Virus record (IMG/VR): IMGVR_UViG_3300009500_000011
Location: 104,585-168,584 of that record
Reading direction: 5' to 3' (one strand)
Origin: a virus
Taxonomy: Duplodnaviria > Heunggongvirae > Uroviricota > Caudoviricetes
DNA length: 64,000 nt
Shown: positions 41,543 to 58,120 of the stretch, one piece after another
How positions within the stretch are numbered: position 1 is the stretch's first letter
Layout: each line of letters opens with the position of its first letter
Program-made: the position numbers and the translations under genes
The notes under the pieces: model-generated
Told to the model about the DNA's origin: nothing
Databases searched by the model: none
Seen by the model: the letters and a program-made list of their open reading frames with translations, nothing else

Positions 41543-44500
41543 ATGTCGCTACTCTTGTTGTATAACCGTAAACTTTTTCAGTCTACATTAACTAATTCTA
41601 ATTTAACTTCTGATTCAAATTCAAGAAAAACTTATTTTTCAAGAACTAATGTAGATTCAAGTTTGTTTTCTGATTCTTCTGCTAGAAGTGCAAATTATAA
41701 TAGAGCATCATCAGATATATTCAACTTATCTGATAGTCTTTTGCGTAATACGTTTTATGCACGTAGTTTTCAAGAAATATATTCTTTTTTCGATTCATTA
41801 AATAGACAAGTTGATAACAGTAGAAGTGAATCAGAAATTTTTAGTACGATTGATATTCAAAATTTATCACGATTTTATAATCGTTCATCCACAGATTCTT
41901 TTAATTTTTCTGATAGTAATTCTCGGTTTTTAGATTTTGCTCGTCTTCAATCTGATGTTTTAATTTTTAATGACTTAATTAATCGTTCCACTAATGTAAA
42001 TCGTTCTATAACCGACCAATCTATAGAGATAGATTCTTTAACAAGACAAATTATTGATAATCGCCAAACTTCGGACGTATTCAATACTATTTTATCTTTT
42101 ACAGAACAGCAGTTTTTATCTAGGTCAACTACCGATGGATTAAGTTCTTTTACAGATTCTTCATCGTATAGTCGAGTTTTGCCACGTTCTGTTATGGATA
42201 CTTTTAGTTTTTCGGATTCAAATTCTATTTCTCAATTACTTCTAAGAACATTTAGTGAAAGTTATTCTTTCAATGATGTTCTTAGTAATTCTGGAACTCA
42301 TATCGCTTTTTTAAGTGATGTATTAACAAATTTTGTAGATTCAATAAGCGCCGAACAGTTTGTTTCAAGAACAATGTCTGATAATCTAACGACATTAGAT
42401 TTAGTAACTTCAGTTAAGACTTTTTATAGATTAAATTCAGATAATACTAACTTTGCAGATGCTATCTCTTCTGCTAATATTTTAAATAGATTTAATATTC
42501 AAAATTTAAATTTTAATGATTCACTTAATAATCAAAATATTTTTAATAGAAATAATAGTGATTTAGTTAATAATTTTAATGATTCCACTTTAATATCTCA
42601 ATTTTTAAATCGAACCTCAAATGAGGTGTTTTCAACATCTGATATTTTATCTTTGGCGCAATTTTTGTCTCGTAATCCAACAGATATTCTTACAACGTTA
42701 GATAATAACGGTAGAAATATCTTTATTTCTAAATCAGTAATTGATTCTATTTTAACTTTCGATAGTCTTCAAAGCACGAAGATTGCTAATTTAAATCTTC
42801 AAGAAACATTTAGCTTTAGTGATGTTCTTTTAAGAAATATTATAGATTTCCGTACAAATTCAGACAGTTTTGCGTTTGTTGATTTTGTCAATAATTATAA
42901 TATATTTACAAAATCAATTGTTGAATCTTTCCAAACAAATGATTTGCTAACAAGGGAGTATATCTCAAATCAAAATCTTCAAGAAAACTTTAATTTTTTA
43001 GATATATTATCTGAAAGTCAATTTTTACAAAGACAATGTTCAGAACAATTTAATTTTATTGATGGTATATTGAGAGAAGTAATCATTAATAGGGCCATGA
43101 ACGAAACTCTATTGGAATCAGATGACATTACTACTGCTTTAGTTTTCTTTAGGAATATAAATGAACAATTCTCTACCGCAGCATCTGTAAGTTATGTACA
43201 TTCATTCGTTAGAAATTTGTTAGAAAATTTTGCAACTTCTAATTCCATTAGCAGGGCTCTTATTTCTCCAAGAAATACTTCTGATTTCTTTAATCAAATT
43301 GTCGATACTTTAAATTCATATAAAATTGCCAATTTTAATCTTGATGAAACTTTTGCATTTAATGATTCTTTATCTCAAATGTCTCTGGTTTTTAGGAATT
43401 TTTCAGATTTATTTAGTTTTTTTGATTTTACAACAAGTAATGCAATAATTCCTAGAAATATTGAAGAATCATATCCTATAAGTGATTCATTGTCCAATAA
43501 CAATTTGTTTTCAAGACTTTTCGAAGAAGAATTTAATTTTACTGATGCTGTTAATATAAGTCAGAGTTTGGCGCGTCAATTCTTAGATAGTTTTATTTTT
43601 TTTGATAATGTTTCAACAAATAGTTCAGGCGGTTTGTTTTTAAGAGTAATATCAGATGTTTTAAATACTAATGATTCTAGTGAAATAAATCAATTTTTAA
43701 ATCGTGAAAATACCGATACATCATTAACTAGTGATTCGCTCCAAAACTCCAATATTTTAAATAGACAATTTCAAGACTTATTAAGTATAGCAGATACCTT
43801 AACTTCTACTAATGAATTTAATAGATTTTTTTCTGATTTGTTGCAAACTAATGATGCTGCAAATTCAAATTACGTTTATAATTCAAATTTATCTGATAAT
43901 TTAAACACAAGTGATTCGCTAAATAGATTTTTTCTAAATATTGCAAACTTAGCAGAAACATTTACAACAACAGATTCCAACTCCAGAGAATCTATTTTGG
44001 CGCGAAGTCTATCTGAAACATTTTCTCTATTGGATTTATTAACTAGAGTTTTATCTAAAGTAAGGTTATTAAACGATAATCTTCCCTTTACTTTTGATTC
44101 ACTTGCAACATATAGTACGTTTTTTAGAGAACTGCAAGAAGAGTATATATCATCCGAAGAATTAATTAACGAATCTATTTATAAAAGGCAACTTGAAAAT
44201 ACATTTACAACTTTGGATGAGTTGATGCGTGTTTTACTTATTGCTAGGGAAGTATTTGAAGTCGGAGAAATATCAGATACTGTTGCAAGTAAAGCAGTTA
44301 TTCTAAGATTTGTAGAAGAATTTTTTGAATTAGTAGATAATATTGCCTTAAATCAAAGAATTAATCGTAGTTCTGAGTATCAAAGTAACTTCTCGGATAT
44401 TCTAAATAGAGAAGTTATATTAGAAAGATTTTTGTCTGATTCAAGTCAATTTTTTGACAATTCTTTACTTCAAAAAGTTGGTGCAAGATTTTTCGTTAAT

Positions 44501-44878
44501 TTATTTGATGAATACTCATTTACTGATGAACTTATTGGGACAAGTTTGTTAGAAAGATTTTCTCAGGACATATTACAAACAGCCGATGAAGTTGCTCGTT
44601 TAGTAAATAATAATAGAAGTGTAGAAGAAATTTTTGAATTCTTAGATATTGCTTCGCGTAAACCAGTATTTAAAATTGGTCAAAGAGTTAAATTCAGATA
44701 TAATGGTGCCTTATGTCAAGGTAAAATTATTTTAAGATATTATGCAACAAATCCTAGTGAAGGCATTAGATATCAAGTTAATGTTGATTTTTGTAGTAAT
44801 TGGAAAGCAATTGGAAAAACAACACGAATTGATGTAGATTTAAATGATTTATTATCAATTAATCCTCAGAATTGGTAA
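41543..44878 (+). CDS. giant tandem-repeat protein (~50 copies of a ~21-aa unit) with C-terminal PQNW domain
   Basis: repeating ...SDxFxFxDSLxRxxxxxRxxx... units across >1000 aa; unique C-terminal 80 aa shared with ORF 35895. Confidence 0.6.
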   Translation: MSLLLLYNRKLFQSTLTNSNLTSDSNSRKTYFSRTNVDSSLFSDSSARSANYNRASSDIFNLSDSLLRNTFYARSFQEIYSFFDSLNRQVDNSRSESEIFSTIDIQNLSRFYNRSSTDSFNFSDSNSRFLDFARLQSDVLIFNDLINRSTNVNRSITDQSIEIDSLTRQIIDNRQTSDVFNTILSFTEQQFLSRSTTDGLSSFTDSSSYSRVLPRSVMDTFSFSDSNSISQLLLRTFSESYSFNDVLSNSGTHIAFLSDVLTNFVDSISAEQFVSRTMSDNLTTLDLVTSVKTFYRLNSDNTNFADAISSANILNRFNIQNLNFNDSLNNQNIFNRNNSDLVNNFNDSTLISQFLNRTSNEVFSTSDILSLAQFLSRNPTDILTTLDNNGRNIFISKSVIDSILTFDSLQSTKIANLNLQETFSFSDVLLRNIIDFRTNSDSFAFVDFVNNYNIFTKSIVESFQTNDLLTREYISNQNLQENFNFLDILSESQFLQRQCSEQFNFIDGILREVIINRAMNETLLESDDITTALVFFRNINEQFSTAASVSYVHSFVRNLLENFATSNSISRALISPRNTSDFFNQIVDTLNSYKIANFNLDETFAFNDSLSQMSLVFRNFSDLFSFFDFTTSNAIIPRNIEESYPISDSLSNNNLFSRLFEEEFNFTDAVNISQSLARQFLDSFIFFDNVSTNSSGGLFLRVISDVLNTNDSSEINQFLNRENTDTSLTSDSLQNSNILNRQFQDLLSIADTLTSTNEFNRFFSDLLQTNDAANSNYVYNSNLSDNLNTSDSLNRFFLNIANLAETFTTTDSNSRESILARSLSETFSLLDLLTRVLSKVRLLNDNLPFTFDSLATYSTFFRELQEEYISSEELINESIYKRQLENTFTTLDELMRVLLIAREVFEVGEISDTVASKAVILRFVEEFFELVDNIALNQRINRSSEYQSNFSDILNREVILERFLSDSSQFFDNSLLQKVGARFFVNLFDEYSFTDELIGTSLLERFSQDILQTADEVARLVNNNRSVEEIFEFLDIASRKPVFKIGQRVKFRYNGALCQGKIILRYYATNPSEGIRYQVNVDFCSNWKAIGKTTRIDVDLNDLLSINPQNW

Positions 44879-44904
44879 CTTTACAGTTTCTTTACATAGC
44901 ATTG

Positions 44905-44933
44905 TTGCAAATATTGGTATGCTTGTCTATAAT
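44905..44933 (+). promoter_or_regulatory. sigma70 promoter TTGCAA-17-TATAAT
   Basis: ttgcaa atattggtatgcttgtc tataat at the start of the ORF-free region. Confidence 0.6.
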
Positions 44934-45036
44934 CTCTAATAGAGTTGAAGCTGAAGGAAACGAAGCAGGTGGTTTAAATGCCATCGGAAGCAAGTGCAAG
45001 TCTTGCCATCTCTGCCATAAAAAACTAAATAAATTT

Positions 45037-45078
45037 GAGTTGCGTTAGAGTACGGTTACTTCTTAATTGACATATACC
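45037..45078 (+). repeat. motif copy R1 GAGTTGCGTTAGAGTACGGTTACTTCTTA
   Basis: aligned by eye with 45278, 45367 and 17238. Confidence 0.5.
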
Positions 45079-45277
45079 TAATGTCCCACCTCAATAAAGG
45101 AGTAAAATCTTTTATTGGGCTAGTCACCTGAGTCGTGGTGAGACGCATTGTGCAAATGTTAGTGGAGGCTCGTAAAATAAGCCTAGAACTAAAAATTCTT
45201 AGACTTAAGATGTAAAAATCAAAAGTCGGTCCCGTACTTGCCCTCTTCTCTCAAATTTATTTTAAAAATTAAAAACT

Positions 45278-45312
45278 TGGGTTGCGACAGATTACAGATA
45301 CTTCTTATATGG
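45278..45312 (+). repeat. motif copy R2 GGGTTGCGACAGATTACAGATACTTCTTA
   Basis: shares TTGCG...TA.A...(A/G)(A/T)TACTTCTT with R1/R3. Confidence 0.5.
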
Positions 45313-45366
45313 AATAAAAAAGCTGTATTCGCTACCTTCTCCCGAGTATAAATTTTATAATATTTA

Positions 45367-45440
45367 AATTGCGTTAATTACAGATACTTCTTGTATATTG
45401 GTTCGAGTCCATTAAGTGTAGTCGGTACACAACTGTAGTT
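45367..45440 (+). repeat. motif copy R3 AATTGCGTTAATTACAGATACTTCTTG followed by T-arm mimic and 3' complement (aattacag / ctgtagtt)
   Basis: 5' aattacag pairs with 3' ctgtagtt (8 bp, one G-U) enclosing ggttcgagtcc. Confidence 0.5.
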
Positions 45441-45465
45441 GTTCCATTCGTTTAAATTTTATTTA

Positions 45466-45499
45466 ATCCTTGGGAATATATTTCTCAAGGATTTTTTTG
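45466..45499 (+). terminator. intrinsic terminator
   Basis: atccttgggaatatatttctcaaggattttttt. Confidence 0.65.
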
Positions 45500-45519
45500 T
45501 TGTCATAAAGGAAAAAAGA

Positions 45520-47205
45520 ATGAAATACAATACTAAAACAGTAAATGCTGGTCCAGGAACAAAAATGATAAATCTTGCAGGCGGAGAAGCTTTTAAAGTT
45601 GATAATCGTACTGCATTATATTTAACTTCTGCAACTTCTTTAGGTGGCGGTCAAGGAAATAAATATTATGTTTCTGCAAATCAAGAATACAAAAATATTC
45701 TTGAACTAATTGAAAAGGTTTCCGCTCAAGACCCAGAATTTATTTTCCAATTGGCTGCATATTGTCGTCAAGATTTATACCTTCGTAGTATTCCAACGGT
45801 ATTATTTATCGAAGGTATTCGTGCAATGCATAAGCAAAAAAAGGCCAATGCACCATATCCAGTAGATGCATCTAAGTATGCAAATGCTATTTTTGGTCGT
45901 GCTGATGAAATTGTTGAAGCAGTTGCATATTGGCTTGGAGTTGAAGGCCATCACAAATTGCCTTCCCCTCTTCGTAAATCTTTGACCATTGCTTTAAATT
46001 CATTTGATGAATACCGCTTGCTTAAATATAATCAAGAAGATAAGCAAGTTACATTTAAAGATATTGTTCGTCTTGTGCATCCAGAACCAAAAACTGATGT
46101 GCAAAGTGCAATTTTCAAATACTTCATCAAGGATGAAATCAGTCCAGAATTAATGCCAAAGGCAACTGCCCGCAAGGCTTTGCTTTCACGTACTCAATTT
46201 GATGAAGAAGCACAACGCTTGATGAGAGATTCATCTGCTACTTGGGAAACTGTAATTGCTAAATTCGGTTCGACTAAAGAAATTTGGGAAGCAGTTATTC
46301 CAAATATGGGATACATGGCTTTATTACGTAATCTTAATAATTTTCTTAAAAAAGAAGTAGATTTAGATTTAGTAATTCCTCGCCTTGTGAATCCGCAAGA
46401 AATTCGTAAAAGCAAGCAATTGCCTTTCCGTTTTTACACAGCAATGAAACAACTTGGTGTAGAAGATAACAATAAGAATTCTACGATGACATATTATGGA
46501 TATTCCGATTCAGTAAAAACAGCATTTGAAAAATGGCGTAATGTAAATTCTAGCGATGGAATTTCTCGTTTACGTAATGCTCTTGGTGTTGCTATGAATA
46601 TTGCAGTAGAAAATGTTCCTCACCTTTCAGGTCGTACCGTTGTTGCGGCAGACCTTTCTGGTTCTATGAGTCAACCTCTTAATAACAAATCAAATGTAAC
46701 TTATCGTGAAATCGCTTGTATTATGGCTGGTATTGCTGGTTCAATAGCACCAGATAATGTAATTTGTGGATTTGGTTGTTCATTTGCTGTTGCTAAAAAA
46801 GGCAAAGATATTCTTGAAACTGCAAATAATATTGATAAATTAAATGTTGGAATGTCAACGGATGCATGGCGTATTCTTGATTACTTGCTTACAAACAAAA
46901 TTTTTGTAGATAGAGTCATGTATTTTACAGATACACAATGTTATAATTCATATGGGGGCGCAAATTTAAACGAACTTTGGAAAAAATACAAAGTTCTTTG
47001 CCAATCAACTGGTAAAAAAGTTCCTGTTCTTTATGAAGTAAATCTTGCAGGTGGTAATACATCTAGTTTTAATTCTGAACAAAGAGTTGCTACCATTGGT
47101 GGATGGTCTGAAAGAATTTTTGATTTAATTACTACTTATGAAACTGACCCTCGTCAAGCAATAAGTAAAATTAAAGAAAAATATTCAGATTTAGTATCTG
47201 TTTAA
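45520..47205 (+). CDS. rsr: Ro60 (Rsr) ortholog: TROVE module + C-terminal vWA domain
   Basis: GGGQGNKYYVS, FQLAAYCRQD, ALLRNLNNF, LPFRFYTAMKQL and vWA MIDAS VVAADLSGSMSQ align with conserved Ro60 blocks; ATG 45520 with RBS AAAGGAAAAAAGAATG (track start 45439 is upstream read-through). Confidence 0.8.
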   Translation: MKYNTKTVNAGPGTKMINLAGGEAFKVDNRTALYLTSATSLGGGQGNKYYVSANQEYKNILELIEKVSAQDPEFIFQLAAYCRQDLYLRSIPTVLFIEGIRAMHKQKKANAPYPVDASKYANAIFGRADEIVEAVAYWLGVEGHHKLPSPLRKSLTIALNSFDEYRLLKYNQEDKQVTFKDIVRLVHPEPKTDVQSAIFKYFIKDEISPELMPKATARKALLSRTQFDEEAQRLMRDSSATWETVIAKFGSTKEIWEAVIPNMGYMALLRNLNNFLKKEVDLDLVIPRLVNPQEIRKSKQLPFRFYTAMKQLGVEDNNKNSTMTYYGYSDSVKTAFEKWRNVNSSDGISRLRNALGVAMNIAVENVPHLSGRTVVAADLSGSMSQPLNNKSNVTYREIACIMAGIAGSIAPDNVICGFGCSFAVAKKGKDILETANNIDKLNVGMSTDAWRILDYLLTNKIFVDRVMYFTDTQCYNSYGGANLNELWKKYKVLCQSTGKKVPVLYEVNLAGGNTSSFNSEQRVATIGGWSERIFDLITTYETDPRQAISKIKEKYSDLVSV

Positions 47206-47282: not shown

Positions 47283-47858
47283 ATGATTTCTTGTTGCGAT
47301 GAATGTGTAAATTATGTTGAGTGTGATAAATGTGAAGGATGTTATGAGTGTGATTCTTGTATTTGTTCGCAATCAAACTCTGGAGAAGAAGACTTTGTGG
47401 CAGAACTTCCTGATGCACCATTTGAAACTTATTATGCTCAAGATGGTTTAATTTCTTTTGGCGCATATTTAGACATTATCTTAATGTATAAAAAATTATT
47501 TTCACCTAATTTAGAAAATTCATTAAGTGTAAATGAAATGTCTATTAATTCTATGCGTGAATTTATTTGGGAAAAACTAAAAGAGCTTTCAACAGAAAAT
47601 GATGAATTTAAAGAATCTGTCGTAAATACTCAACAAAATGTTGATAAAATGCGATTAGAGTTTGAAGCAAATAAAAATAAAATGCAAAGCTTAGAGCAAG
47701 AAAACGTTAATCTTGGTAAAAATATGATTGACAAAGATGCTGAACTTGAAAGATTAAGACGAGAAATAGATACTTTAAAGAGTGAACTTAGAGTTGCCCG
47801 TGGAGTCAATTATTTTCAATCACATAATATTAAAACGGAAGACATGAAGCATGAATGA
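47283..47858 (+). CDS. Cys-rich N-terminus plus coiled-coil protein
   Basis: CCDECVNYVECDKCEGCYECDSCIC then heptad-rich region. Confidence 0.5.
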   Translation: MISCCDECVNYVECDKCEGCYECDSCICSQSNSGEEDFVAELPDAPFETYYAQDGLISFGAYLDIILMYKKLFSPNLENSLSVNEMSINSMREFIWEKLKELSTENDEFKESVVNTQQNVDKMRLEFEANKNKMQSLEQENVNLGKNMIDKDAELERLRREIDTLKSELRVARGVNYFQSHNIKTEDMKHE

Positions 47859-48468
47859 AAATAAAAAATACACAGGCATAATTTTTGTTGGTCCTCTTGG
47901 TTCAGGGAAAGATTTTATTTTATCTCGTATTCGTAAAGCTTTTGATGAAAGTTTGACAGAATATCATGTCTGGAATGTTGGAGATTATTATTATAAGCAT
48001 TTAGGCAAACAAATTAATAAATCCGTTAAATATATTGTTGATAATAAAGCTCGTTTTAGAAGTCAACTGCAAGCAATAGGAACAACTCCATCTATTGTTG
48101 AACAAGGTGTTGCGTATTCACTCGGGAAATATCAAGACCTTAGTGCTTGGGGTGTCTTACCTGTTTTAACAGGTAGATTAAAAAATGAAGTTATTGCTTT
48201 AAAAGAATTAGGTATTGCAGTTATTTTTGTTAAAACTTCTGTTGAAACAAGAGCAAGACGTATATATCAAAGAGACGGAAAATTTCCTTCTGAATCCCAA
48301 TTAAATCATCCAGTAGAACCTAAATTTGAAGATTTTGAAGAATTGGCAGATGCAGTAATCATAAATGAAGATGAATCTGGAGATTTTTATGTAAAATTTA
48401 ATCCCGATGTTAATGCATTAACATATCTTAATAAATCATGTCAAGGCAAACTTATTTTTGACATTTAA
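47851..48468 (+). CDS. P-loop kinase (dNMP kinase / polynucleotide kinase-like)
   Basis: IIFVGPLGSGKDF Walker A. Confidence 0.55.
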   Translation: MNENKKYTGIIFVGPLGSGKDFILSRIRKAFDESLTEYHVWNVGDYYYKHLGKQINKSVKYIVDNKARFRSQLQAIGTTPSIVEQGVAYSLGKYQDLSAWGVLPVLTGRLKNEVIALKELGIAVIFVKTSVETRARRIYQRDGKFPSESQLNHPVEPKFEDFEELADAVIINEDESGDFYVKFNPDVNALTYLNKSCQGKLIFDI

Positions 48469-48495: not shown

Positions 48496-49146
48496 ATGGA
48501 AACTCAAAAAACCTTCTTTACTAGTGATAATCACTTCAATCATGAGAATATAATTAAATTTTGTTTTCGTGGTTATGGTTCTTATGAAGAAAGAAAAAAT
48601 AACCCAGAACTTCATTTCAAATCAATAGGTGAAATGAATGAAATTATGGTTCAACGTTGGAATGAAGTGGTTGGACCAACCGATACTGTATATGTACTCG
48701 GTGATTTTGCTATGGGTGATAAATATAAGTCTGTTGAATATTTTAATAGGCTAAATGGAACAAAACATCTAGTTCTTGGAAATCATGATTGTAGTAACTT
48801 TGTCAAAAAAGAAGTTCACCCTGCAATCCTTGAAATGGGTTTTGCTTCAATTACTGAAGAACTATACGCAAAAATAGATGGTCGAAATGTATGGATGGCT
48901 CACATTCCATATGGTCATAATAATGATAAACGTAACTATCTTCGTGAAAAAGTTAAGCCAGGTTTTTCTCTTAAAAAAGATGTTATTCTAAGTGGCCATG
49001 TACATGATAAATGGATTATAAATAATCATAATTCCATTAATGTGGGAACAGATGTTTGGGATTTTTACCCTCAAACCTTGTCTCAACTTCTGGAAAAAAC
49101 AAAAGACCTTCCTCGTTTTGATTCTTCAATATTTCTTCCTGTTTAA
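48496..49146 (+). CDS. calcineurin-like binuclear metallophosphoesterase
   Basis: TSDNHFNH; LGDFAMGD; GNHD; GHVH. Confidence 0.7.
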   Translation: METQKTFFTSDNHFNHENIIKFCFRGYGSYEERKNNPELHFKSIGEMNEIMVQRWNEVVGPTDTVYVLGDFAMGDKYKSVEYFNRLNGTKHLVLGNHDCSNFVKKEVHPAILEMGFASITEELYAKIDGRNVWMAHIPYGHNNDKRNYLREKVKPGFSLKKDVILSGHVHDKWIINNHNSINVGTDVWDFYPQTLSQLLEKTKDLPRFDSSIFLPV

Positions 49147-49723: not shown

Positions 49724-50029
49724 GTGGTGGTTGCTATGGCAAGAGATACAGTTTACATCACAATTGATATACAATTAGATTCATATGAAATAGCAAACCT
49801 ACTTTTGGCTTTAGACTATGTTCCAAAAACTGGCGAATGGTATGATAAAATTGTAAATAAAATAGCAGATGCTATGGCTCTAAAAGGTGTGAAAATAGAA
49901 GAATTTTATTATAAGCCTAATTCAGGTTTAAATTTAAAATCTGTTCATAGACACCTCGAACTTATGGAACACAAAGAAAAATATCCACATTTAAAAACAA
50001 AAAAAGTTGACAAAACTACTGAAAAGTGA
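49724..50029 (+). CDS. hypothetical protein
   Basis: ORF track. Confidence 0.5.
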   Translation: MVVAMARDTVYITIDIQLDSYEIANLLLALDYVPKTGEWYDKIVNKIADAMALKGVKIEEFYYKPNSGLNLKSVHRHLELMEHKEKYPHLKTKKVDKTTEK

Positions 50030-50046
50030 TAAAATGTAAGAATCTT

Positions 50047-50124
50047 GGTGTTTGTAGTGTAGTGGTTTTAGCACGTTAGCCTGTGAAGCTGAAAGGGCCG
50101 TTTCGAATACGGTCAAACACCCCA
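50047..50124 (+). tRNA. tRNA-His (anticodon GTG) with genomically encoded G-1 opposite C73, CCA encoded
   Basis: g(-1)+gtgtttg / caaacac+c; loop ctGTGaa. Confidence 0.7.
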
Positions 50125-50155
50125 ATTAAATCTTTCTTGAAGAAGAGAAAAATAA

Positions 50156-50284
50156 ATGCACATTATAAAAACTTACTCACCTTATCATGTTGCTTGTACA
50201 TGTAATCATCCTAAATATAAACATATTGAAGGAGCAAAATGTGTAAAAGCAGAATGTAATTGTGAGTCATTTAACCGTAAGTAA
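50156..50284 (+). CDS. 42-aa Cys-rich peptide (below track cutoff)
   Basis: ORF between two tRNAs; 6 Cys. Confidence 0.3.
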   Translation: MHIIKTYSPYHVACTCNHPKYKHIEGAKCVKAECNCESFNRK

Positions 50285-50290
50285 AATTTT

Positions 50291-50368
50291 TGCGAGTATG
50301 GTGTTTAACGGTTCAGCATGGGTGCCTTCCAAGCATTTGGTGCCGGTTCAAATCCGGCTACTCGCTCC
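50291..50368 (+). tRNA. tRNA-Gly (anticodon TCC), CCA encoded
   Basis: perfect acceptor gcgagta/tactcgc; loop ctTCCaa; T-arm gccggttcaaatccggc. Confidence 0.7.
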
Positions 50369-50387
50369 AATTATTTAAGGAATTATA

Positions 50388-50858
50388 GTGGCAAAACATA
50401 GATTAAGTTTTTTTCAACGTTTATCTGGTTTAACAACTGAACTTGATGGATATAAACTTGATGACAATGCCTACTTTATTTATAGTTATCGACCTCATAA
50501 ATTAAATGACGTTTATAGATATGAAATCACATTAGCCCAGGGCAAAATTGTTCAAATATCTACATTTGATTTTGATGATGACTTTCATCCTTACACTATT
50601 AAAACTGAAAAAATTTATCACCATATTCTGGATATTTTCAGAACAAGACAAAAAGTTACACCACTAGTTGATATTGATAGAAACATTGGTGTTAACCGAA
50701 ATAATATTTTTGTTAGTTATGATGCTGCACTTGAAAAATATGAAAAAATTGTTACTGAAACATTTTACTTTTTTAAAGATATGGAAGCAGCATCTTCATT
50801 TAAGAACCAAGCAGACGAATTGAATGCTCATCATGAATATCTTTTGAAGTTTTTGTAA
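50388..50858 (+). CDS. hypothetical protein
   Basis: ORF track. Confidence 0.5.
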   Translation: MAKHRLSFFQRLSGLTTELDGYKLDDNAYFIYSYRPHKLNDVYRYEITLAQGKIVQISTFDFDDDFHPYTIKTEKIYHHILDIFRTRQKVTPLVDIDRNIGVNRNNIFVSYDAALEKYEKIVTETFYFFKDMEAASSFKNQADELNAHHEYLLKFL

Positions 50859-51162
50859 GAGTTGTTTGCATAAAATCAAGACAATCTTTACACATTAAAA
50901 TTAATTTTGGATTTTGAAAATTTTCTTCATCAATAATTTCAACAAAATTATTTTTTTCTGTCTTGCAAAGCAAACATAAATGTGGTATTCCATCATTAAC
51001 TGCCAAAAAATATAAAGAATTGGAAAATTTTTCAACAATAATAAATGGCCTCATTTGATGAACAATTTCTCCAATATTTAAAAGATATTTTTCCATTAAA
51101 TCGAATTCTTCATCGGTACTAAACCCAGCAGATGTTCCATCGGGCTTGAATTTGAATAGCAT
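50800..51162 (-). CDS. hypothetical protein on minus strand (overlaps 3' end of 50388..50858 by ~60 nt)
   Basis: 120-aa ORF with GGAG upstream on minus strand; two CxxC pairs. Confidence 0.4.
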   Translation of the reverse strand: MLFKFKPDGTSAGFSTDEEFDLMEKYLLNIGEIVHQMRPFIIVEKFSNSLYFLAVNDGIPHLCLLCKTEKNNFVEIIDEENFQNPKLILMCKDCLDFMQTTLTKTSKDIHDEHSIRLLGS

Positions 51163-51186
51163 ATATTGTATAATCTCCTTATATAT

Positions 51187-51263
51187 GGCCGTATACCAGC
51201 CTAATTTCCTAAATTAGTAACTGTAGATGGACAAGGTAGGTTCGAATCCTATTGCGGCCTCCA
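51187..51263 (+). tRNA. tRNA-like gene: perfect acceptor and T-arm, CCU-anticodon hairpin, aberrant/absent D-arm (possible tRNA-Arg CCT variant or pseudo-tRNA)
   Basis: acceptor ggccgta/tgcggcc; hairpin ctaat/ttCCTaa/attag sits where the D-arm should be; CCA encoded. Confidence 0.35.
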
Positions 51264-51286
51264 TATAATTATAAGAAGATAATAAT

Positions 51287-51637
51287 ATGCTTGAAGATTT
51301 TAGTATTCGTGTATATCCAAATCAAAGCCTTACTCATGAAGAAGTGGTATTTTTTCTAAAAAATCGAATATTATGTTCTGATAGGATAACAAAAAAATTT
51401 ATTGCTTTAAAGAAAAAAACTATTCTAAATGGACTTTTTAGAAATTGTATAACTAGAGGTTCAAAGTGGAAACAAGCTTTTCAAACTAAAGAAGAAGCTA
51501 ATACTTTTGTTGAAAAACGATTTGGTAAAGATAAAGCATATAGTTATAAATGTGAACTTCATGGTTATCACATATCTTGCATAGATGAAAGTACGTATCG
51601 AAGAGGATATTTGAAAAGAGAAGAAGAGACGAGATAA
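51287..51637 (+). CDS. hypothetical protein
   Basis: ORF track. Confidence 0.5.
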   Translation: MLEDFSIRVYPNQSLTHEEVVFFLKNRILCSDRITKKFIALKKKTILNGLFRNCITRGSKWKQAFQTKEEANTFVEKRFGKDKAYSYKCELHGYHISCIDESTYRRGYLKREEETR

Positions 51638-51670
51638 ATTTATTGGACCTTTCTCAAAGGAAATAATAAA

Positions 51671-52426
51671 ATGCGCGCTCTTGGTTTAAAATCTTTAGTA
51701 GACCCACGTAGGGACCAATATCCAAAATTAATTTTAAAAGATGGTCCAATTCCTTCAAAAGTTGAATATGCTCCTTTATATCCTCCGGTTGATGACCAAG
51801 GAAATTTTGGTACATGTGTTGCATTTGGAACCGGCAAAGTCTTTGAATACTTTTATAATAAGCAGAACAACAAACAACTTTTAATTTCAAAACGTGCCCT
51901 TTTTTCAGAAATTAAACAAAATTTTTACCCTCATGATACTCAAGATGATGGTGCCCAAGTTTCTGATGGATTACAAATATTATCTTTAAATTACATCTTA
52001 GAATCTGATTTTCCTTATGAACCGGCTGGAGATTTTAGTCAGTTTTTACATGGGGTTCCAGCAAATCTTGAAAAAACAGATTTTAAAATAAAACATTTTG
52101 TATCGGTAAATCCCGTCATTGATGATATGAAAAATGCATTATTTCATCAAGGCCCTTTAGCTATCGGAACATCCTTTGCAAACGAATGGATGGAGATTGG
52201 TAGTGATGGTCGTTTACCTGGTTCTAATCTTACATCTGCTGGTGGACATTGCATGTCTATTACCGGATATGATGATGACTTTGTAAATCTAGATGGTTCA
52301 AAAGGTGCTTTCCATTATATTAACAATTGGTCAACTGCTTGGGGCCAAGAAGGATATGCTTGGTTGCCATATAACGTTGATACAGACTTTTTTCCAACCG
52401 ACCTTTTTACAGTTCAAGTTCAATAA
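51671..52426 (+). CDS. papain-like (C1 family) cysteine peptidase
   Basis: QGNFGTCVAFG (Gln oxyanion + Cys); GGHCMSITGYDD (His); NNWSTAWGQEGYAW (Asn-Trp). Confidence 0.75.
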   Translation: MRALGLKSLVDPRRDQYPKLILKDGPIPSKVEYAPLYPPVDDQGNFGTCVAFGTGKVFEYFYNKQNNKQLLISKRALFSEIKQNFYPHDTQDDGAQVSDGLQILSLNYILESDFPYEPAGDFSQFLHGVPANLEKTDFKIKHFVSVNPVIDDMKNALFHQGPLAIGTSFANEWMEIGSDGRLPGSNLTSAGGHCMSITGYDDDFVNLDGSKGAFHYINNWSTAWGQEGYAWLPYNVDTDFFPTDLFTVQVQ

Positions 52427-52437
52427 TAATCAAACTG

Positions 52438-52466
52438 TTGACAAAACAGAGGAAATTGATTATACT
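52438..52466 (+). promoter_or_regulatory. consensus sigma70 promoter TTGACAAAAC-17-TATACT
   Basis: ttgaca aaacagaggaaattgat tatact. Confidence 0.65.
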
Positions 52467-52471
52467 ATAGA

Positions 52472-53098
52472 TATGGTCGTAAGAGACTAGTCGCGGTCTG
52501 AAAAAAAGCCGCCTTGCGTTGACCCTCTTATCACGCCCGTAAACTCGGGACTTAGTAAGTCCTTCCAGAACAAGTCTAATAAACACTCTGGAAGGCAAAC
52601 TTGGGATATAGCAGTTTTGACTGGAAAACCAAGGGCTATAAGACAAGCAGTAGAGCATTAGGCTACTATAAAAAATGCAAACAAACAATCGCAGACTTTT
52701 CTGTAACTGGGTTCAACGACTTCATCGCTCGCGAAGCGGTCGCTGCCTAAAACCTCTCTAGGCTCGTAGAGTAATACGGGCTAAGGGAAACATAGTTTCC
52801 CTACCTTATCCGTGGGGCCACACGGAAGGTTCGATTCACGTTTCAGAGGTTACTACTCTGTAGCACCATAAACGAGAATATTACCCTTATGAATAAGGGC
52901 GACCGGAGGGCTAGGTCGTAAATGGCGCTCATTGTAGGCTGAAATTTCCTACAAAACCAAGTCCTGGTTGAGGGAATAAATATCAGGAAGCTTGTATAAT
53001 CAAATAGTTCGAAGATTCTAGGACTCGGGGGGCGGCTCCCCGAATATTCCACCAAATAATAATAAACCTTCAATGTAAAAGTTGAAGGTTTATTTATT
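52472..53098 (+). ncRNA. ~625-nt highly structured non-coding RNA; candidate ROOL/GOLLD-like large ornate phage RNA
   Basis: ORF-free on + strand; promoter at 5' end, strong terminator at 3' end; many perfect hairpins. Confidence 0.5.
53064..53098 (+). terminator. intrinsic terminator
   Basis: aaaccttcaatgtaaaagttgaaggtttatttatt. Confidence 0.7.
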
Positions 53099-53125
53099 GA
53101 CATTCTTAGGTAATTCTGATATAAT
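53097..53125 (+). promoter_or_regulatory. sigma70 promoter TTGACA-17-TATAAT driving a leaderless mRNA (ATG 7 nt after -10)
   Basis: ttgaca ttcttaggtaattctga tataat attgat ATG(53132). Confidence 0.6.
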
Positions 53126-53131
53126 ATTGAT

Positions 53132-53335
53132 ATGTACCCAATGAATATTCAAGTAATTTATAAAGATATTCCTGGTTTTAAAGGAATGGGTCGCGTTGTC
53201 GGTGTTGCATCTTATGCTTTTCCTGGAATGGGCTGCATGTATATTGTTGAAGACTTAGATGGTAATATTCCGACCAAAGAATATCCTTATAAAACTTTTA
53301 TTGTTCAAGAATCTTTATTACATTTTTGTACTTAA
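53132..53335 (+). CDS. hypothetical protein (leaderless)
   Basis: ORF track; no SD, start at predicted TSS. Confidence 0.5.
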   Translation: MYPMNIQVIYKDIPGFKGMGRVVGVASYAFPGMGCMYIVEDLDGNIPTKEYPYKTFIVQESLLHFCT

Positions 53336-53538
53336 TAAAAATGACAGTTAAAGAATTAATTTTGGGATTATCTAAATTTGACGAAAATTTTACTATTGTT
53401 ACCAGGACTGGAAAATATTATTTAGCAGATAAAGTAACAACCGTTGAAGATGGATGGTTTGATGAAGAAAATATGATTTTTTATATTGAATCTTCATTTA
53501 AAGACATAAATATTAAAAACGCTGTATTAATAGAGTGA
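53326..53538 (+). CDS. hypothetical protein; stop overlaps tRNA-Ser 5' end
   Basis: ORF track. Confidence 0.5.
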   Translation: MYLIKMTVKELILGLSKFDENFTIVTRTGKYYLADKVTTVEDGWFDEENMIFYIESSFKDINIKNAVLIE

Positions 53539-53624
53539 TGGGTGAATTGGTCAAACCACCTTCCTGCTAAGAAGGCGCGACCCCTCAAAAGGTCTTCCGG
53601 GTTCGAGTCCCGGTCACTCTGCCA
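53532..53624 (+). tRNA. tRNA-Ser (anticodon GCT), class II, CCA encoded
   Basis: perfect acceptor agagtga/tcactct; stem ccttc/gaagg; loop ctGCTaa; long variable arm; T-arm ccgggttcgagtcccgg. Confidence 0.7.
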
Positions 53625-53646
53625 ATTTAAATCTAAGAAAATTATA

Positions 53647-53868
53647 ATGCGAAATATAAATGATTCTGTTGCAATTATAGCTTATTCTCAAGATGATTAT
53701 ATTATTGTTACATCTGGAAGAATAGTAGGTATAAAAATCCATGTTACTAAACCTGATTTATATAATGTTCTTAGTATAGATGGCAACATTTATAGTGTAT
53801 CAGATGATAAAATTTTTGATTCTTTTGAATCTGCTTTAGAAATAGCCAAATCAAAACCAAATTTATAA
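53647..53868 (+). CDS. hypothetical protein (track ORF 53542 trimmed; its 5' part is the tRNA)
   Basis: first ATG downstream of tRNA-Ser. Confidence 0.45.
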   Translation: MRNINDSVAIIAYSQDDYIIVTSGRIVGIKIHVTKPDLYNVLSIDGNIYSVSDDKIFDSFESALEIAKSKPNL

Positions 53869-54287
53869 TGTCTTATAAATTATTAAAAATTATACCTGGG
53901 GCTTCAAAAGGCATAAAATTATTTAGAACAAGTAAATTTAATCGTGATGGTATGCCTAAAATAAAGCCCAAATCTAGCAAATATAGGTCTTCTATGTTTG
54001 CTTCTTATTTTATAGAACATACCCGTTGTGCTTTTAAAGGTCATGTTCCTAAACCTTCGGGTCGCAAAAATCATTTGCCAACATGTAAATATTGTTATCA
54101 TATTTTGCCTGAATATGGATACGGTTATGGATGGACAAAAGAATTAGAAATTTCTATATATGGTGAAAAGGATTGTCGTCGGTATTGTGAGAATTGCACA
54201 TCAGGTTATTATTTAAAGCCAGATTCGATTAAATGTAATAACTATTTTTGCGGTAAAGAAAGAAAATATATTATTAATCATGCATAA
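53868..54287 (+). CDS. Cys/His-rich hypothetical protein
   Basis: ORF track. Confidence 0.5.
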   Translation: MSYKLLKIIPGASKGIKLFRTSKFNRDGMPKIKPKSSKYRSSMFASYFIEHTRCAFKGHVPKPSGRKNHLPTCKYCYHILPEYGYGYGWTKELEISIYGEKDCRRYCENCTSGYYLKPDSIKCNNYFCGKERKYIINHA

Positions 54288-54567
54288 ATATGCTGTTTTC
54301 CATCAAAATTATAATGAAAAATATGATAAACGTTTGATTGCAGTAGTTGAAATTGCAGAAGGTGTTAATCCTCATGCTGCTCATATGTATGGGCAATCAT
54401 TTTTAAATGACCCTGAGCATTATTATACCATTGTCGAAAGATATGAAGAACCAAAGGTTGTATTGATAACAGAAAAAGTTCTTCAAGCAAGATTGTCTAT
54501 AATAGAAAAGCAACGTGAAATTGCTGAAAGACAAAAAGAAATTAATAAGTTATTAAAGGTTGGATAA
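54280..54567 (+). CDS. hypothetical protein
   Basis: ORF track. Confidence 0.5.
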   Translation: MHKYAVFHQNYNEKYDKRLIAVVEIAEGVNPHAAHMYGQSFLNDPEHYYTIVERYEEPKVVLITEKVLQARLSIIEKQREIAERQKEINKLLKVG

Positions 54568-54881
54568 TGAAACCAGCAAATAAACCATGTTCAAAAGAGT
54601 ATTGTTTTAAAGAGGCAAAAGAATTTGAAGATGCTTTAATTGAAGATGGCATGGTTGTCACACGAACAAAACCTAAACTTTTTAAGTGTGGCAAATGTGG
54701 TATTCTTGTTTGTGCCTACCATTCGACGGCATTAGTTATGTTTAGGGATGAACATGGAAATCGAAAACAAATTGCGTATAAACCAGCAATTTGTCGTCGT
54801 TGTTCTTGGTTAGAAGATAATGCTGGTTTACATGGTAGACCCGCAGGTTGGATTGCAACGAGAGTCCCTATTCCTTGGTAA
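54567..54881 (+). CDS. hypothetical Cys-containing protein
   Basis: ORF track. Confidence 0.5.
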   Translation: MKPANKPCSKEYCFKEAKEFEDALIEDGMVVTRTKPKLFKCGKCGILVCAYHSTALVMFRDEHGNRKQIAYKPAICRRCSWLEDNAGLHGRPAGWIATRVPIPW

Positions 54882-54924
54882 TAATCAAAATAATAATTGA
54901 CAACACTAGAAAAGAAAGTAAGAT

Positions 54925-55179
54925 ATGAACATGGATACTAAATCACAGAATTCGGAAGAAACAAAAATTGTAGGTCGTACTGCTTTAGTTACTGGCAAAA
55001 TTGGCCCAGACACACTTGGTCAAGTTACTGTTGCTATACGTGAAGGCACAGATACATATTCTGCGCGTTCGGCTCATCCTGACGAAGTAATATCTGTTGG
55101 TTCTGAAGTTGTAATTTCAAAGTTTTTTCCTCCACGGACTGTTTTAGTTTCAAAAACTACTACTTCTACGAAAGAATAA
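54925..55179 (+). CDS. NfeD-like OB-fold (beta-barrel) protein, partner of the downstream SPFH protein
   Basis: small Gly/Val-rich beta protein TALVTGKIGPDTLGQVTVAIREG...VISVGSEVVISKF directly upstream of a flotillin-like gene (canonical NfeD-SPFH arrangement). Confidence 0.5.
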   Translation: MNMDTKSQNSEETKIVGRTALVTGKIGPDTLGQVTVAIREGTDTYSARSAHPDEVISVGSEVVISKFFPPRTVLVSKTTTSTKE

Positions 55180-55185
55180 TAAATC

Positions 55186-56619
55186 TTGACTAGTTTACTT
55201 ATGACATATGGAATTCCGGTAGGTATCGGATTATTAGCATTATTTTTCATCGTTGGACTTCTTCGTTCAATGTATAAAGTCGCAGAACCGAATGAAGCTT
55301 TAATTATTTCAGGTTTTGGGGCAGGCAAAAAAGGTTCTGACTTAGATTTCAAATCAGTTGCTGGCGGTGGCACATTTGTAATTCCTGGCCTTCAAATTGT
55401 GCGTAAACTTTCTTTAGAAGCCCGTACTGCTAAATTGGTTACAAGTTGTGTTTCTAAGCAGGGTATTGGTGTATCTATTGAAGGTGTTTGTATGTACAAA
55501 ATTGGTGATAGCGCACAATCTATTGCCAACGCTGCACGACGTTTTCTAGGTCAACCAGATGACTTAATTGATAGCAATATTCAAACAGTTCTTGACGGTC
55601 ATCTTCGTTCAATTATCAGTAATTTAACGATTGAAGAAATTCTTCAAAATCGTGAAAAACTTACTGGTGAGACAAGAAGTGCTGCTGATGATGAACTTGC
55701 ACAGATGGGTCTAGTTATTAACTCGCTTCAAATCATTAGTATCAAAGATTCTAGTAATTATGTTGCAAGCATGGCTGCTCCTCATGTTGCAGAAGTTCAA
55801 AAGAATGCTCGTATTGCACAGGCTGCTGCTGAACAAGCAGCAACAATTGCTGAACAAGAGGCTGCTGCTCAAAAGGCCGCTGCTACTAGAGATTCAGAAG
55901 TCAAACAGGCTGCATATTTAGCAGAGATTGAATCTGCGAAAGCAACAGCAGCACAACAAGGCCCTCTAGCGGCTGCTAAAGCGCAACAAGCCGTTATGGT
56001 TGAACAAACTAAAATGACGGAACTTGAAGCTAATCGTAAAGAACAAGAACTTCAAGTTAGTGTTCGTCGTCCTGCTGATGCAGAAGCCTATGCTGTTACA
56101 GTTAAGGCAAATGCTCAAAAGGTTGCTACGATTGCTGCTGCTGAAGCAAATGCACAACAAACTAAACTTGAAGCTGAATCTCGCGCTGCCGCAGCTAGGG
56201 TTCTTGGTGAAGGTGAAGCAGAGGCTACAAAGGCCCGTGGTGCTGGTGAAGCTGCTGCTATTGAAGCCAAAGGTCTTGCTGAAGGTAAAGCAATTCAAGC
56301 GCGTGTACTTGCCGAAGCCGAAGGTATTGCCGCTAGTGGTAAAGCATTCGCTGAAAATAAAGAATCTGTTATTCAAAAGATTCTTGCAGAACATATGCCT
56401 GAAATTGTTAAAGAAGCTGCACAACCATTTGCTGCAATTAAAAACTTCATGGTTCTTGATGGTGCCCAAGGTGTAAATCGTACACTTACCGGAATCATCG
56501 GTGTGGGTGCAACCTTGCTTCCACAAATCATGCAGACTTTTAAAGATGGTGCAGAGGTTGTTAAGAATCAAGTATCACTCACGAATTCTGGAACAGACTC
56601 TGAAAAACCCAAGAAGTAA
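55186..56619 (+). CDS. SPFH/band-7 (flotillin-like) membrane protein with long Ala/Glu/Gln-rich coiled coil
   Basis: N-terminal TM helix; YKVAEPNEALIISG SPFH start; EA/AA coiled-coil repeats typical of flotillins. Confidence 0.8.
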   Translation: MTSLLMTYGIPVGIGLLALFFIVGLLRSMYKVAEPNEALIISGFGAGKKGSDLDFKSVAGGGTFVIPGLQIVRKLSLEARTAKLVTSCVSKQGIGVSIEGVCMYKIGDSAQSIANAARRFLGQPDDLIDSNIQTVLDGHLRSIISNLTIEEILQNREKLTGETRSAADDELAQMGLVINSLQIISIKDSSNYVASMAAPHVAEVQKNARIAQAAAEQAATIAEQEAAAQKAAATRDSEVKQAAYLAEIESAKATAAQQGPLAAAKAQQAVMVEQTKMTELEANRKEQELQVSVRRPADAEAYAVTVKANAQKVATIAAAEANAQQTKLEAESRAAAARVLGEGEAEATKARGAGEAAAIEAKGLAEGKAIQARVLAEAEGIAASGKAFAENKESVIQKILAEHMPEIVKEAAQPFAAIKNFMVLDGAQGVNRTLTGIIGVGATLLPQIMQTFKDGAEVVKNQVSLTNSGTDSEKPKK

Positions 56620-56637
56620 GTAATTTACTACAATCAC

Positions 56638-56677
56638 ATAGCAGGTAGATTAATCTCTACCTGCTATGTTTATTTAA
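56638..56677 (+). terminator. intrinsic terminator
   Basis: catagcaggtagattaatctctacctgctatgtttattt. Confidence 0.65.
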
Positions 56678-56690
56678 AAGGTTCATATAT

Positions 56691-56993
56691 ATGTTAAGCG
56701 AAGAATTTAAAGAAAAAAGATTTAAAGAAAACACATCATTAGATAAAGACCGCATTCTATATTCAGGTGCTTTATATGATGATGTTAGAGCGGCAATATA
56801 TGCTGTAGTTCGTCAATGGCGCGCTTCACATAATAATTTTGGTAAAAATTCTACAATGAAACATGTAGATGAAATTATGACTATGCCTGAAGTAATTCGA
56901 TTATATGACCCATTTTATACAACAAAAAGTTGGTTTAATTATACAGGTTGCACCTGTCGCGGTGATTGCTGCGAAAATCATGAAGAGGAATAA
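56691..56993 (+). CDS. hypothetical protein
   Basis: ORF track. Confidence 0.5.
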   Translation: MLSEEFKEKRFKENTSLDKDRILYSGALYDDVRAAIYAVVRQWRASHNNFGKNSTMKHVDEIMTMPEVIRLYDPFYTTKSWFNYTGCTCRGDCCENHEEE

Positions 56994-57000
56994 TAAAAAA

Positions 57001-57228
57001 ATGCCGTTTTACAAATTTCGTTGCTCAAATTTTGAATGTAGTTATAACCAAAAAGATTTAAAACCATTAGTATTTGAATTAAATATGTCAATGACAAATT
57101 ATTCTCAATTATCTAAAGATAGTATCACCGGGAATCCAATGGTAAAATGTCCAGAATGTTCTTATGATGCTATTAGAGTATTTGAAGCCCCAGCAGTTCA
57201 TACAGAAACGGGAGTTAAATCAAGATAA
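57001..57228 (+). CDS. FmdB-family zinc-ribbon protein
   Basis: MPFYKFRCSNFEC ... VKCPECS matches the MPxYEYxCxxCgxxFE FmdB signature; RBS GAAGAGGAataataaaaaaATG. Confidence 0.55.
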   Translation: MPFYKFRCSNFECSYNQKDLKPLVFELNMSMTNYSQLSKDSITGNPMVKCPECSYDAIRVFEAPAVHTETGVKSR

Positions 57229-57443
57229 TGAATCAAAAAGTTTACCAACCTAGAAAAGAAGATAGAAGAAAATCTTCAAGACGCGAAGCTGATGATAAAG
57301 TTATGGTAACCTTTGAACTTGATAGAGAAGTTTATTTCGAAGTTTTAAAAATTTGTATTGAGACAAAACAAACCTTTGAAGAATTTGTTGTCAAAGCGGT
57401 AAAAGAACAATTAGAAAGAATTAAAAATTCGGATGTTGGGTAG
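57228..57443 (+). CDS. ribbon-helix-helix (CopG/Arc-like) protein
   Basis: basic N-tail then beta-strand KVMVTFELDREVY followed by two helices. Confidence 0.45.
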   Translation: MNQKVYQPRKEDRRKSSRREADDKVMVTFELDREVYFEVLKICIETKQTFEEFVVKAVKEQLERIKNSDVG

Positions 57444-58106: not shown

Positions 58107-58120
58107 AATTGTGCTATTAT
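58092..58120 (+). promoter_or_regulatory. sigma70 promoter TTGACAAAAC-17-TATTAT for the tRNA-Val/Arg unit
   Basis: ttgaca aaacaataaaattgtgc tattat; tRNA starts 11 nt downstream. Confidence 0.6.

Follow-up and report, generated by a model that had tools for sequence, protein, structure and literature searches.

A bacterial-type Thg1-like protein and a tRNA-His gene with encoded G-1 in a tRNA-rich, probable phage sequence: a predicted function in repairing tRNA 5' ends

The stretch of DNA analyzed here (64 kb, the window) carries a tRNA-His gene in which the G-1 nucleotide is encoded opposite C73, and it also encodes a bacterial-type Thg1-like protein (TLP), whose gene shares a tight operon with that of an Rnl1-like RNA ligase. 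The best explanation, which we consider probable, is that G-1 is supplied by the gene itself and that the TLP serves as a templated tRNA 5'-end repair enzyme within an RNA-repair kit. The argument starts from direct results, namely the anatomy of the genes and the tRNA, the family to which the protein belongs, its catalytic residues and predicted fold, and the conserved linkage of its gene, and leads to the likely activity, substrates and source of damage, which we infer from homology and gene context. Many PHROG gene matches and relatives in IMG/VR suggest that the window comes from a phage; clear structural genes were not found in the 64 kb.

The combination of a TLP with a tRNA-His that has an encoded G-1 has already been catalogued in many large phages, is ordinary for tRNA-rich ones, and does not constitute a new principle. 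New here are the tight operon of TLP, Rnl1-like ligase and PhoH, the order of which is found in the two closest relatives, and the quantified linkage between TLP and RNA ligase genes.

The tRNA-His gene encodes G-1

The tRNA-His(GTG) gene was located at 50047..50124 (+ strand) with ARAGORN, the Rfam tRNA model RF00005 and direct reading of the sequence. ARAGORN called tRNA-His(gtg) at 50048..50124, with the CCA counted in, and RF00005 matched 50048..50121 from end to end with 55.7 bits (gathering score 29). Position 1 is therefore at 50048 by two independent methods, and G-1 (50047) is encoded. Positions +1 to 73 correspond to 50048..50121, with C73 at 50121, and the encoded CCA follows at 50122..50124. 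A preliminary description of this DNA had claimed that G-1 is encoded opposite C73, and the G at 50047 and the C at 50121 bear this out.

All seven pairs of the acceptor stem (GTGTTTG/CAAACAC) are standard as read from the sequence, and the G at 50047 is able to pair with C73, extending the stem to 8 bp. The remainder of the cloverleaf is canonical: the D arm has a stem of 4 bp and a loop of 10 nt, the anticodon loop reads CUGUGAA, the variable loop has 4 nt, and the T loop is TTCGAAT. An 8-bp acceptor stem is typical of bacterial tRNA-His, and the G-1:C73 pair directs bacterial RNase P to the correct cleavage site. The window tRNA-His shares the encoded G-1:C73, the GUG anticodon, the 4-nt variable loop and the encoded CCA with bacterial tRNA-His of the E. 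coli and B. subtilis type, and its G-1 G1 U2 G3 is presumably the same as in E. coli tRNA-His. There is no essential difference, apart from a near-consensus promoter of its own and a very short predicted leader. The gene is thus a standard bacterial-type tRNA-His gene.

The G at position -1 is not a chance occurrence, since it is absent from all 28 further tRNAs of the window that Rfam supports; their -1 base is T in 23 cases and A in 5, and of the 32 tRNA calls tRNA-His alone has G-1. The G content of the window is 18%. In two unrelated viral contigs that carry a TLP gene (L017 and L027), tRNA-His likewise has G-1 and C73, and G at -1 occurs in 3 of 130 non-His tRNAs. The base at -2 of the window tRNA-His is T, compared with T at -1 in 23 of the 28 other supported tRNAs, which would fit an RNase P cut displaced by one position upstream.

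A pattern scan identified a near-consensus sigma-70-type promoter at 50007..50035 (+ strand; TTGACA, 17 nt, TAAAAT, with an upstream TG). It has 11 of 12 consensus matches, is the best of the region as judged by consensus match only, and ends 11 nt before G-1. A start site placed according to this match implies that the tRNA-His precursor would have a leader of about 5 nt before G-1. We expect the precursor transcript to include G-1, which would pair with C73 and stay on the tRNA, since RNase P would cut one position upstream. With G-1 supplied in this way, no post-transcriptional addition of G-1 should be needed.

A tRNA-His of another design was observed in Bacillus phages. In phage Bc431v3, the TLP of which is 75% identical to the TLP of Bacillus thuringiensis (BtTLP), the tRNA-His gene (NC_020873.1, 156701..156774, minus strand) has a C at -1, C1:G72, A73 and no CCA. 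The design is kept, with stem-preserving changes, in phages QCM8, Deep Blue, Tsamsa and Chewbecca, and tRNA-His(GTG) of this family (C1:G72, A73, and C or A at -1) is present in 36 phage records. An encoded G-1 and C73 are the usual identity elements for bacterial HisRS, and the family has neither. It is therefore not true for every TLP phage that G-1 is encoded. Eighteen of the 36 records are not among the 164 records found to be positive for TLP (see below), so that the TLP is not generally required for the Bacillus phage tRNA-His, and we rejected the idea that it meets a general need in the maturation of these G-1-less tRNAs.

The Thg1-like protein is of the bacterial type

The ORF at 13436..14197 (+ strand) encodes a protein of 253 aa, which we assign on the basis of Pfam and PHROG matches, similarity to BtTLP and fold to the bacterial-type TLPs, and which is predicted to be a templated 3'-5' RNA polymerase. 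The Pfam Thg1 domain (PF04446) matched with an E-value of 3.8e-29 and 101.7 bits (cut-off 29.2), and the match to the Thg1C domain was weak (22.8, cut-off 26.3). PHROG 4717, named "tRNA-His guanylyltransferase", matched with an E-value of 1.9e-84; this phage family, which includes gp143 of Bacillus phage Bc431v3 and proteins of Pseudomonas phage 201phi2-1 and of jumbo phages, is the family of the window TLP. Among proteins of known structure, phmmer found BtTLP (4KGK/4KGM; 6.3e-56, 47% identity over 227 aligned columns of a trimmed alignment), Candida Thg1 (5.6e-15, 29% identity), human Thg1 (1.2e-13, 29% identity) and the Methanosarcina TLP (MaTLP; 1.2e-11, 31% identity). The similarity to BtTLP spans the whole protein, including the C-terminal tRNA-binding part.

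In a neighbor-joining tree of 171 sequences, built without bootstrap and with unambiguous distances, the window TLP and BtTLP fell into one clade of 168, together with 87 sequences of viral or metagenomic origin and 79 from cells, which left out MaTLP and both eukaryotic Thg1 sequences. The preliminary description had favored a TLP-type enzyme, and the protein does group with BtTLP in the bacterial-type clade, apart from archaeal MaTLP and from eukaryotic Thg1. The nearest cellular TLPs were from Bacteroidota (53-55% identity), which may be taken as a weak hint at the host lineage. A protein identical to the window TLP is encoded on a Logan contig from SRR5829579, which represents the same phage.

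The catalytic carboxylates are retained. D32, D77 and E78 align to D29, D76 and E77 of human Thg1 and are invariant across an alignment of 17 homologues. The stretch that contains the HINNLYN motif in Thg1 (RQxDCHINNLYN) reads RQKDATRNSIQ in the window TLP, so that HINNLYN is absent. In eukaryotic Thg1, this motif reads the GUG anticodon, and its histidine stacks on the anticodon base G36 (PMC6471195). An AlphaFold model of the window TLP (pLDDT 87.9, pTM 0.86) was submitted to Foldseek, which returned 4kgm/4kgk as best matches (E 1e-24, TM 0.86-0.89). Human Thg1 and archaeal TLP ranked next, and there were also weak matches to the GGDEF and Cas10 folds.

Comparison with BtTLP (Rao et al., 2011; Hyde et al., 2013) showed the same catalytic D/D/E, N-terminal DSxGDRMK motif and RQxDAxxNS segment, and a similar predicted fold (TM 0.88-0.89). 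The organism that encodes BtTLP also encodes G-1 in its genome, so that the same question of why a TLP is present arises there. Unlike BtTLP, the window TLP, the activity of which is predicted, has R45 in place of the K found in BtTLP and Thg1. Its gene is carried by a phage-like element that has 32 tRNA genes, and shares an operon with the gene for an Rnl1-like ligase. Eukaryotic Thg1 (yeast, human, Candida; PDB 3OTB, 3WBZ) shares the superfamily, the palm fold and the two-metal carboxylates with the window TLP. However, eukaryotic Thg1 adds a non-templated G opposite A73, whereas in the window identity to Thg1 is about 29%, HINNLYN is missing, position 73 is C and G-1 is encoded.

The TLP gene lies in an operon among RNA-repair genes

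The TLP gene is the last of a run of three genes that begins with an Rnl1-like RNA ligase gene (11631..12935, + strand, 434 aa), which was recognized by Pfam (RNA_lig_T4_1, PF09511, E 1.3e-16, 61.6 bits), PHROG 562 and the motifs KEDG, EGSVV and LKVK (motifs I, IV and V) visible in its translation. Between the two, the ORF list contains an ORF of 168 aa with no assigned function (ORF168, 12937..13443, + strand), which has no Pfam match and a weak N-terminal match to PHROG 1615, and which among the loci examined occurs only in this phage. The junctions are tight, with 1 nt between the end of the ligase gene (12935) and the start of ORF168 (12937), and with an overlap of 8 nt between the end of ORF168 and the start of the TLP gene. 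A gene for a PhoH-like ATPase (14350..15051, + strand; Pfam PhoH, 1.3e-60) lies directly downstream of the TLP gene, and together with it the run forms a tight operon. The main tRNA island starts 2.7 kb downstream of the TLP gene, and the tRNA-His gene is 36 kb away.

Further genes of the window point to RNA repair or quality control. We found an RlaP-family (RNA-ligase-associated Pol-beta) nucleotidyltransferase (31183..32001, + strand; PF10127, 5.4e-17; PHROG 388, 3.9e-47), a Ro60/TROVE RNA-binding protein involved in RNA quality control (45520..47205, + strand; Pfam TROVE, 3.5e-32, and vWA_Ro60; PHROG 850, 1.8e-46), and three metallophosphoesterases identified by Pfam Metallophos (25588..26253, + strand; 29683..30408; 48496..49146), which match PHROGs 1649, 246 and 547. 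The metallophosphoesterases are candidate RNA 3'-end healing enzymes and may have a role in RNA repair. The Rnl1-like ligase, RlaP, Ro60 and the three metallophosphoesterases amount to a broad RNA-repair and quality-control toolkit in 64 kb. Neither a polynucleotide kinase-phosphatase (Pnkp) nor a CCA-adding enzyme was recognized in the subset of window ORFs that was scanned, and two P-loop kinases (5809..6513 and 47851..48468) matched the dNMP kinase PHROG 139. Sequence searches of the PDB with the Rnl1-like ligase and RlaP gave zero matches, T4 Rnl1 included.

The arrangement resembles tRNA repair in phage T4, in which Rnl1 and Pnkp act against the damage done by the PrrC anticodon nuclease. 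In both cases, a phage Rnl1-family ligase is encoded near tRNA genes, and the window would share with T4 the concept that a phage mends tRNA damage inflicted by its host. In contrast to T4, no Pnkp was recognized among the window ORFs scanned, and the Rnl1-like protein is too divergent for T4 Rnl1 to be matched in a PDB search. To our knowledge, T4 lacks a TLP for 5'-end rebuilding, RlaP and Ro60, all three of which are present in the window.

Unusual phage cargo was also noted (32325..33611, 55201..56619, 51671..52426, 10802..11146 and 37311..44878). It comprises a BCS1-like AAA ATPase that carries a BCS1 N-domain, as well as an SPFH/flotillin protein, a papain-family protease and an AdoMet decarboxylase, and the same regions contain two ORFs of more than 1100 aa without Pfam or PHROG match.

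Linkage of TLP and RNA-repair genes in other viruses is frequent, but not universal

TLP homologues were found in 164 GenBank phage records, nearly all of them from phages larger than 100 kb, and are routinely labelled tRNA-His guanylyltransferase. The hosts of these phages include Bacillus, Prevotella (Lak phages), Caulobacter, Mycobacterium, Erwinia and Vibrio, among others. All of the GenBank phage homologues are less than 60% identical to the window TLP, and a Megablast search of the TLP region against GenBank phages gave a tRNA-Asn of cyanophage S-CAM3 as the sole match. A profile-guided scan of IMG/VR identified at least 598 viral contigs with a TLP; a scan of IMG/VR with the TLP of Caulobacter phage CcrColossus as single query protein matched only that phage group.

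In the closest relatives, the uncultured L006 and L007 (64% identity), the order Rnl1-like ligase, TLP, PhoH is kept and is followed by Ku. The Rnl1-TLP-PhoH arrangement is common only to the window, L006 and L007, and in many other loci the TLP gene is paired with Rnl2 instead. In L008, a 98-kb contig with a 58% identical TLP, a span of 10 kb takes in the genes for Rnl1, Rnl2, TLP and RlaP as well as those for a metallophosphoesterase and a PNK-like kinase.

In order to quantify the linkage, we used a set of 67 viral TLP loci, dereplicated at 90% TLP identity. In 25 of the 67 an Rnl1, Rnl2, RlaP or PNK-like gene lies within 10 kb of the TLP gene, and about 60% have no repair marker in this range. 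An RNA ligase gene is found within 3 kb in 16 of the 67 loci, and always on the strand of the TLP gene. The density of markers is 9.8 per 100 kb in the first kb and about 2 per 100 kb beyond 3 kb (about 4-fold), a comparison with an internal control only, made among loci that are phylogenetically related and not independent. Linkage between TLP and repair genes is thus frequent, but not universal.

A tie to tRNA-His was looked for as well. Among some 140 further TLP loci of viruses, just 2 have a tRNA-His gene within 10 kb of the TLP gene, and with the two genes 36 kb apart in the window, we rejected physical association of TLP with tRNA-His. The 40 kb around the TLP gene of CcrColossus contain no tRNAs. 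The Caulobacter lineage, to which the host of this phage belongs, is said to lack G-1.

Two minor observations were made in these loci. Amber-suppressor tRNAs (CTA anticodon, "Pyl" in ARAGORN) are encoded beside the TLP gene or close to it in L004 (7938..8093), L049, L071 and L072, which suggests that stop-codon-recoded phages also carry TLPs. A protein family of about 252 aa without Pfam match occurs in 6 of the loci examined and is encoded directly upstream of the TLP gene in L008 (9250..10008), L009 and L027 (9219..). In L008 and L009 its gene overlaps the TLP start by 8 nt. The family is unrelated to ORF168 and is a possible TLP partner.

Templated 5'-end repair is the probable role of the phage TLP

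In vitro, BtTLP adds G-1 opposite C73 with an efficiency of 5500 per M per s, equal to that of yeast Thg1, and opposite A73 with about 108. It prefers the restoration of missing +1 nucleotides on 5'-truncated tRNAs 5- to 160-fold, adds any of the four bases without G bias, and does not act on tRNA-His alone, as tRNA-Phe is also used. Templated addition with a preference for truncated tRNAs has been shown for BtTLP and MaTLP only (all PMC3061083). Since BtTLP does both in vitro, the repair of truncated tRNAs and the restoration of G-1 are both biochemically plausible. Rao et al. reasoned that G-1 is genomically encoded in most bacteria and that TLPs should therefore do something else, probably tRNA 5'-end repair (PMC3061083). 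The argument that an encoded G-1 speaks for repair was thus already published in 2010-2011, and the reasoning of the preliminary description is the published rationale for bacterial TLPs. A role of RNA repair in phages against host defence has likewise been proposed, in 2010 (PMC2904730) and 2021 (PMC7824862), and Iyer et al. (2021) listed Thg1 among the RNA-repair enzymes of jumbo phages, together with RlaP, Rnl1/Rnl2 and Ro/TROVE (PMC7824862). Our literature search found no experimental study of the activity, substrate or expression of any phage TLP.

We propose that the window TLP is a Watson-Crick-templated 3'-5' RNA polymerase that rebuilds missing 5' nucleotides of tRNA acceptor stems. 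The 5'-phosphate would be activated with ATP or GTP, and the 3' strand would serve as the template; if G-1 of tRNA-His were lost, the enzyme could also put it back opposite C73. The TLP would be one tool of a phage RNA-repair kit that also includes the Rnl1-like ligase of the same operon, RlaP, the phosphoesterases and Ro60. This kit may keep the large tRNA set of the phage, and possibly tRNAs of the host, usable in infection, probably in the face of host nucleases. The preference of the preliminary description for templated 5'-end repair over an obligatory G-1 addition is supported by the sequence, the structure prediction and the gene context. The main weak point is that we know of no nuclease in phage defence that truncates tRNA 5' ends, and the damage to be repaired is therefore hypothetical. 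It also speaks against this explanation that a polynucleotide 5'-kinase was not recognized among the window ORFs scanned, and that about 60% of the viral TLP loci have no repair marker within 10 kb.

The TLP might instead be mainly a safeguard for tRNA-His, which restores a lost G-1 opposite C73 and so allows charging by HisRS. Loss of G-1 could be due to exonucleases, or to RNase P, which with a leader of only about 5 nt might sometimes cut at +1, and the promoter of the tRNA-His gene does imply such a very short leader. The G-1:C73 pair is itself an established cleavage signal for bacterial RNase P, which argues against the safeguard role. The window tRNA-His has the C73 opposite which BtTLP adds G-1 at the efficiency of yeast Thg1, but BtTLP prefers truncated tRNAs of any identity (PMC3061083). 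The gene context is similarly divided, as two other TLP contigs have tRNA-His at a distance of 3.6-4 kb from the TLP gene, but it is not near this gene in most TLP loci, and in the window 36 kb separate the TLP gene from tRNA-His, while its linkage is to an RNA ligase gene instead. On balance, we consider a main role as a tRNA-His safeguard unlikely. It is somewhat less likely still that the TLP acts on RNAs other than tRNA, such as a putative Y-like RNA encoded beside Ro60, mRNA 5' ends or primers, or that it makes a small nucleotide product. The broad RNA recognition of TLPs and the non-tRNA role of one Dictyostelium TLP (PMC6471195, PMC5041481) are in line with this idea, as are the presence of Ro60 and a tRNA-like noncoding region in the window, and the kinship of the TLP/Thg1 palm domain to GGDEF and Cas10 (PMC2904730), which is echoed by the weak fold matches. 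However, the similarity to BtTLP includes the C-terminal tRNA-binding part, the TLP gene lies at the edge of a tRNA island, and there is no experimental precedent for a bacterial-type TLP that acts on anything but tRNA.

The database name of the family would make the protein a canonical tRNA-His guanylyltransferase, required as in eukaryotes for the non-templated addition of G-1, and the Bacillus phage tRNA-His family, without encoded G-1 and with A73, might appear to call for such an enzyme. Yet half of the Bacillus phage records with this tRNA lack a TLP. In the window, G-1 is encoded and position 73 is C, the motif that would read the anticodon is absent, and the protein belongs to the TLP and not to the Thg1 clade. 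The sequence largely refutes this reading, and we regard it as highly improbable.

Templated 5'-end repair remains our preferred explanation. The TLP and RNA ligase operon at the edge of a set of 32 tRNA genes, in the company of RlaP, Ro60 and phosphoesterases elsewhere in the window, supports the idea of a part for 3'-5' polymerization in the conflict of phage and host over tRNA. Bacterial-type TLPs repair 5'-truncated tRNAs in vitro, and their natural role has been a question since 2010; loci like this one are tractable systems in which a role in tRNA conflict could be tested. A more specific and rather doubtful version is that the Rnl1-like ligase, ORF168, TLP and PhoH constitute a counter-defence module, which would repair tRNA 5' acceptor ends, G-1 of tRNA-His included, after clipping by an undescribed host immune nuclease. 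If true, it would provide the first physiological substrate for bacterial-type TLPs and a new class of tRNA-targeting defence.

Other tRNA genes and the noncoding region upstream of Ro60

ARAGORN predicted 32 tRNA genes, every one of them on the + strand of the window, with 22 calls in the main island (16876..27979) and ten further calls at 50048..62944. Rfam supported 29 of the 32 at gathering score. All Rfam-supported tRNAs have perfect 7-bp acceptor stems, and 28 of the 29 have an encoded CCA. Neither 5' acceptor-stem mismatches nor overlapping tRNA genes, as known from 5' editing of the mitochondrial style, occur among them. As the stems are perfectly paired and tRNA genes do not overlap, there is no need for a repair of the editing type.

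The leaders of the tRNA genes have the consensus T-A-T at -3 to -1 (e.g., 62859..62868 and 58676..58685), with T at -1 in 23 of 28 (binomial P of about 1e-7); 18 of the 28 have A at -2. Together with the encoded CCA, this looks like an optimization for RNase P processing and for independence from a CCA-adding enzyme.

Several calls are atypical. The genes for tRNA-Thr(tgt), tRNA-Lys(ctt), tRNA-Val(tac) and tRNA-Arg(acg) (23092..23174, 25104..25188, 58131..58213 and 58686..58776) are 83-91 nt long and have extended variable regions, which are unusual for class I tRNAs; all except tRNA-Val(tac) are supported by Rfam. The call at 18948..19021 has a 4-base anticodon, atcg (Rfam, 35 bits at 18950..19019). 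A second tRNA-Tyr of only 67 nt (17242..17308) and a tRNA-Gln(ctg) without CCA (18606..18677) are below the Rfam gathering score. The call with the 4-base anticodon, the short tRNA-Tyr and the CCA-less tRNA-Gln may be pseudo-tRNAs or non-canonical decoders.

The Ro60/TROVE gene is immediately preceded by a noncoding gap of 640 nt (44879..45519). When this neighborhood of Ro60 was searched with Rfam for a Y RNA, there was nothing at gathering score and only a weak tRNA-like match, and the minimum free energy fold of the region was no better than that of shuffled sequences. The tRNA-like element (44941..45014, 32 bits) has odd anticodon and T loops, and there is a second T-arm-like sequence, GGTTCGAGTCC, near 45400. 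A TTGCG..TACAGATACTTCTT-like motif occurs three times in the gap (near 45040, 45283 and 45370), which also contains a terminator-like hairpin at 45463..45500. We regard it as a candidate location for a phage Y RNA, a tRNA-mimicking partner of Ro60.
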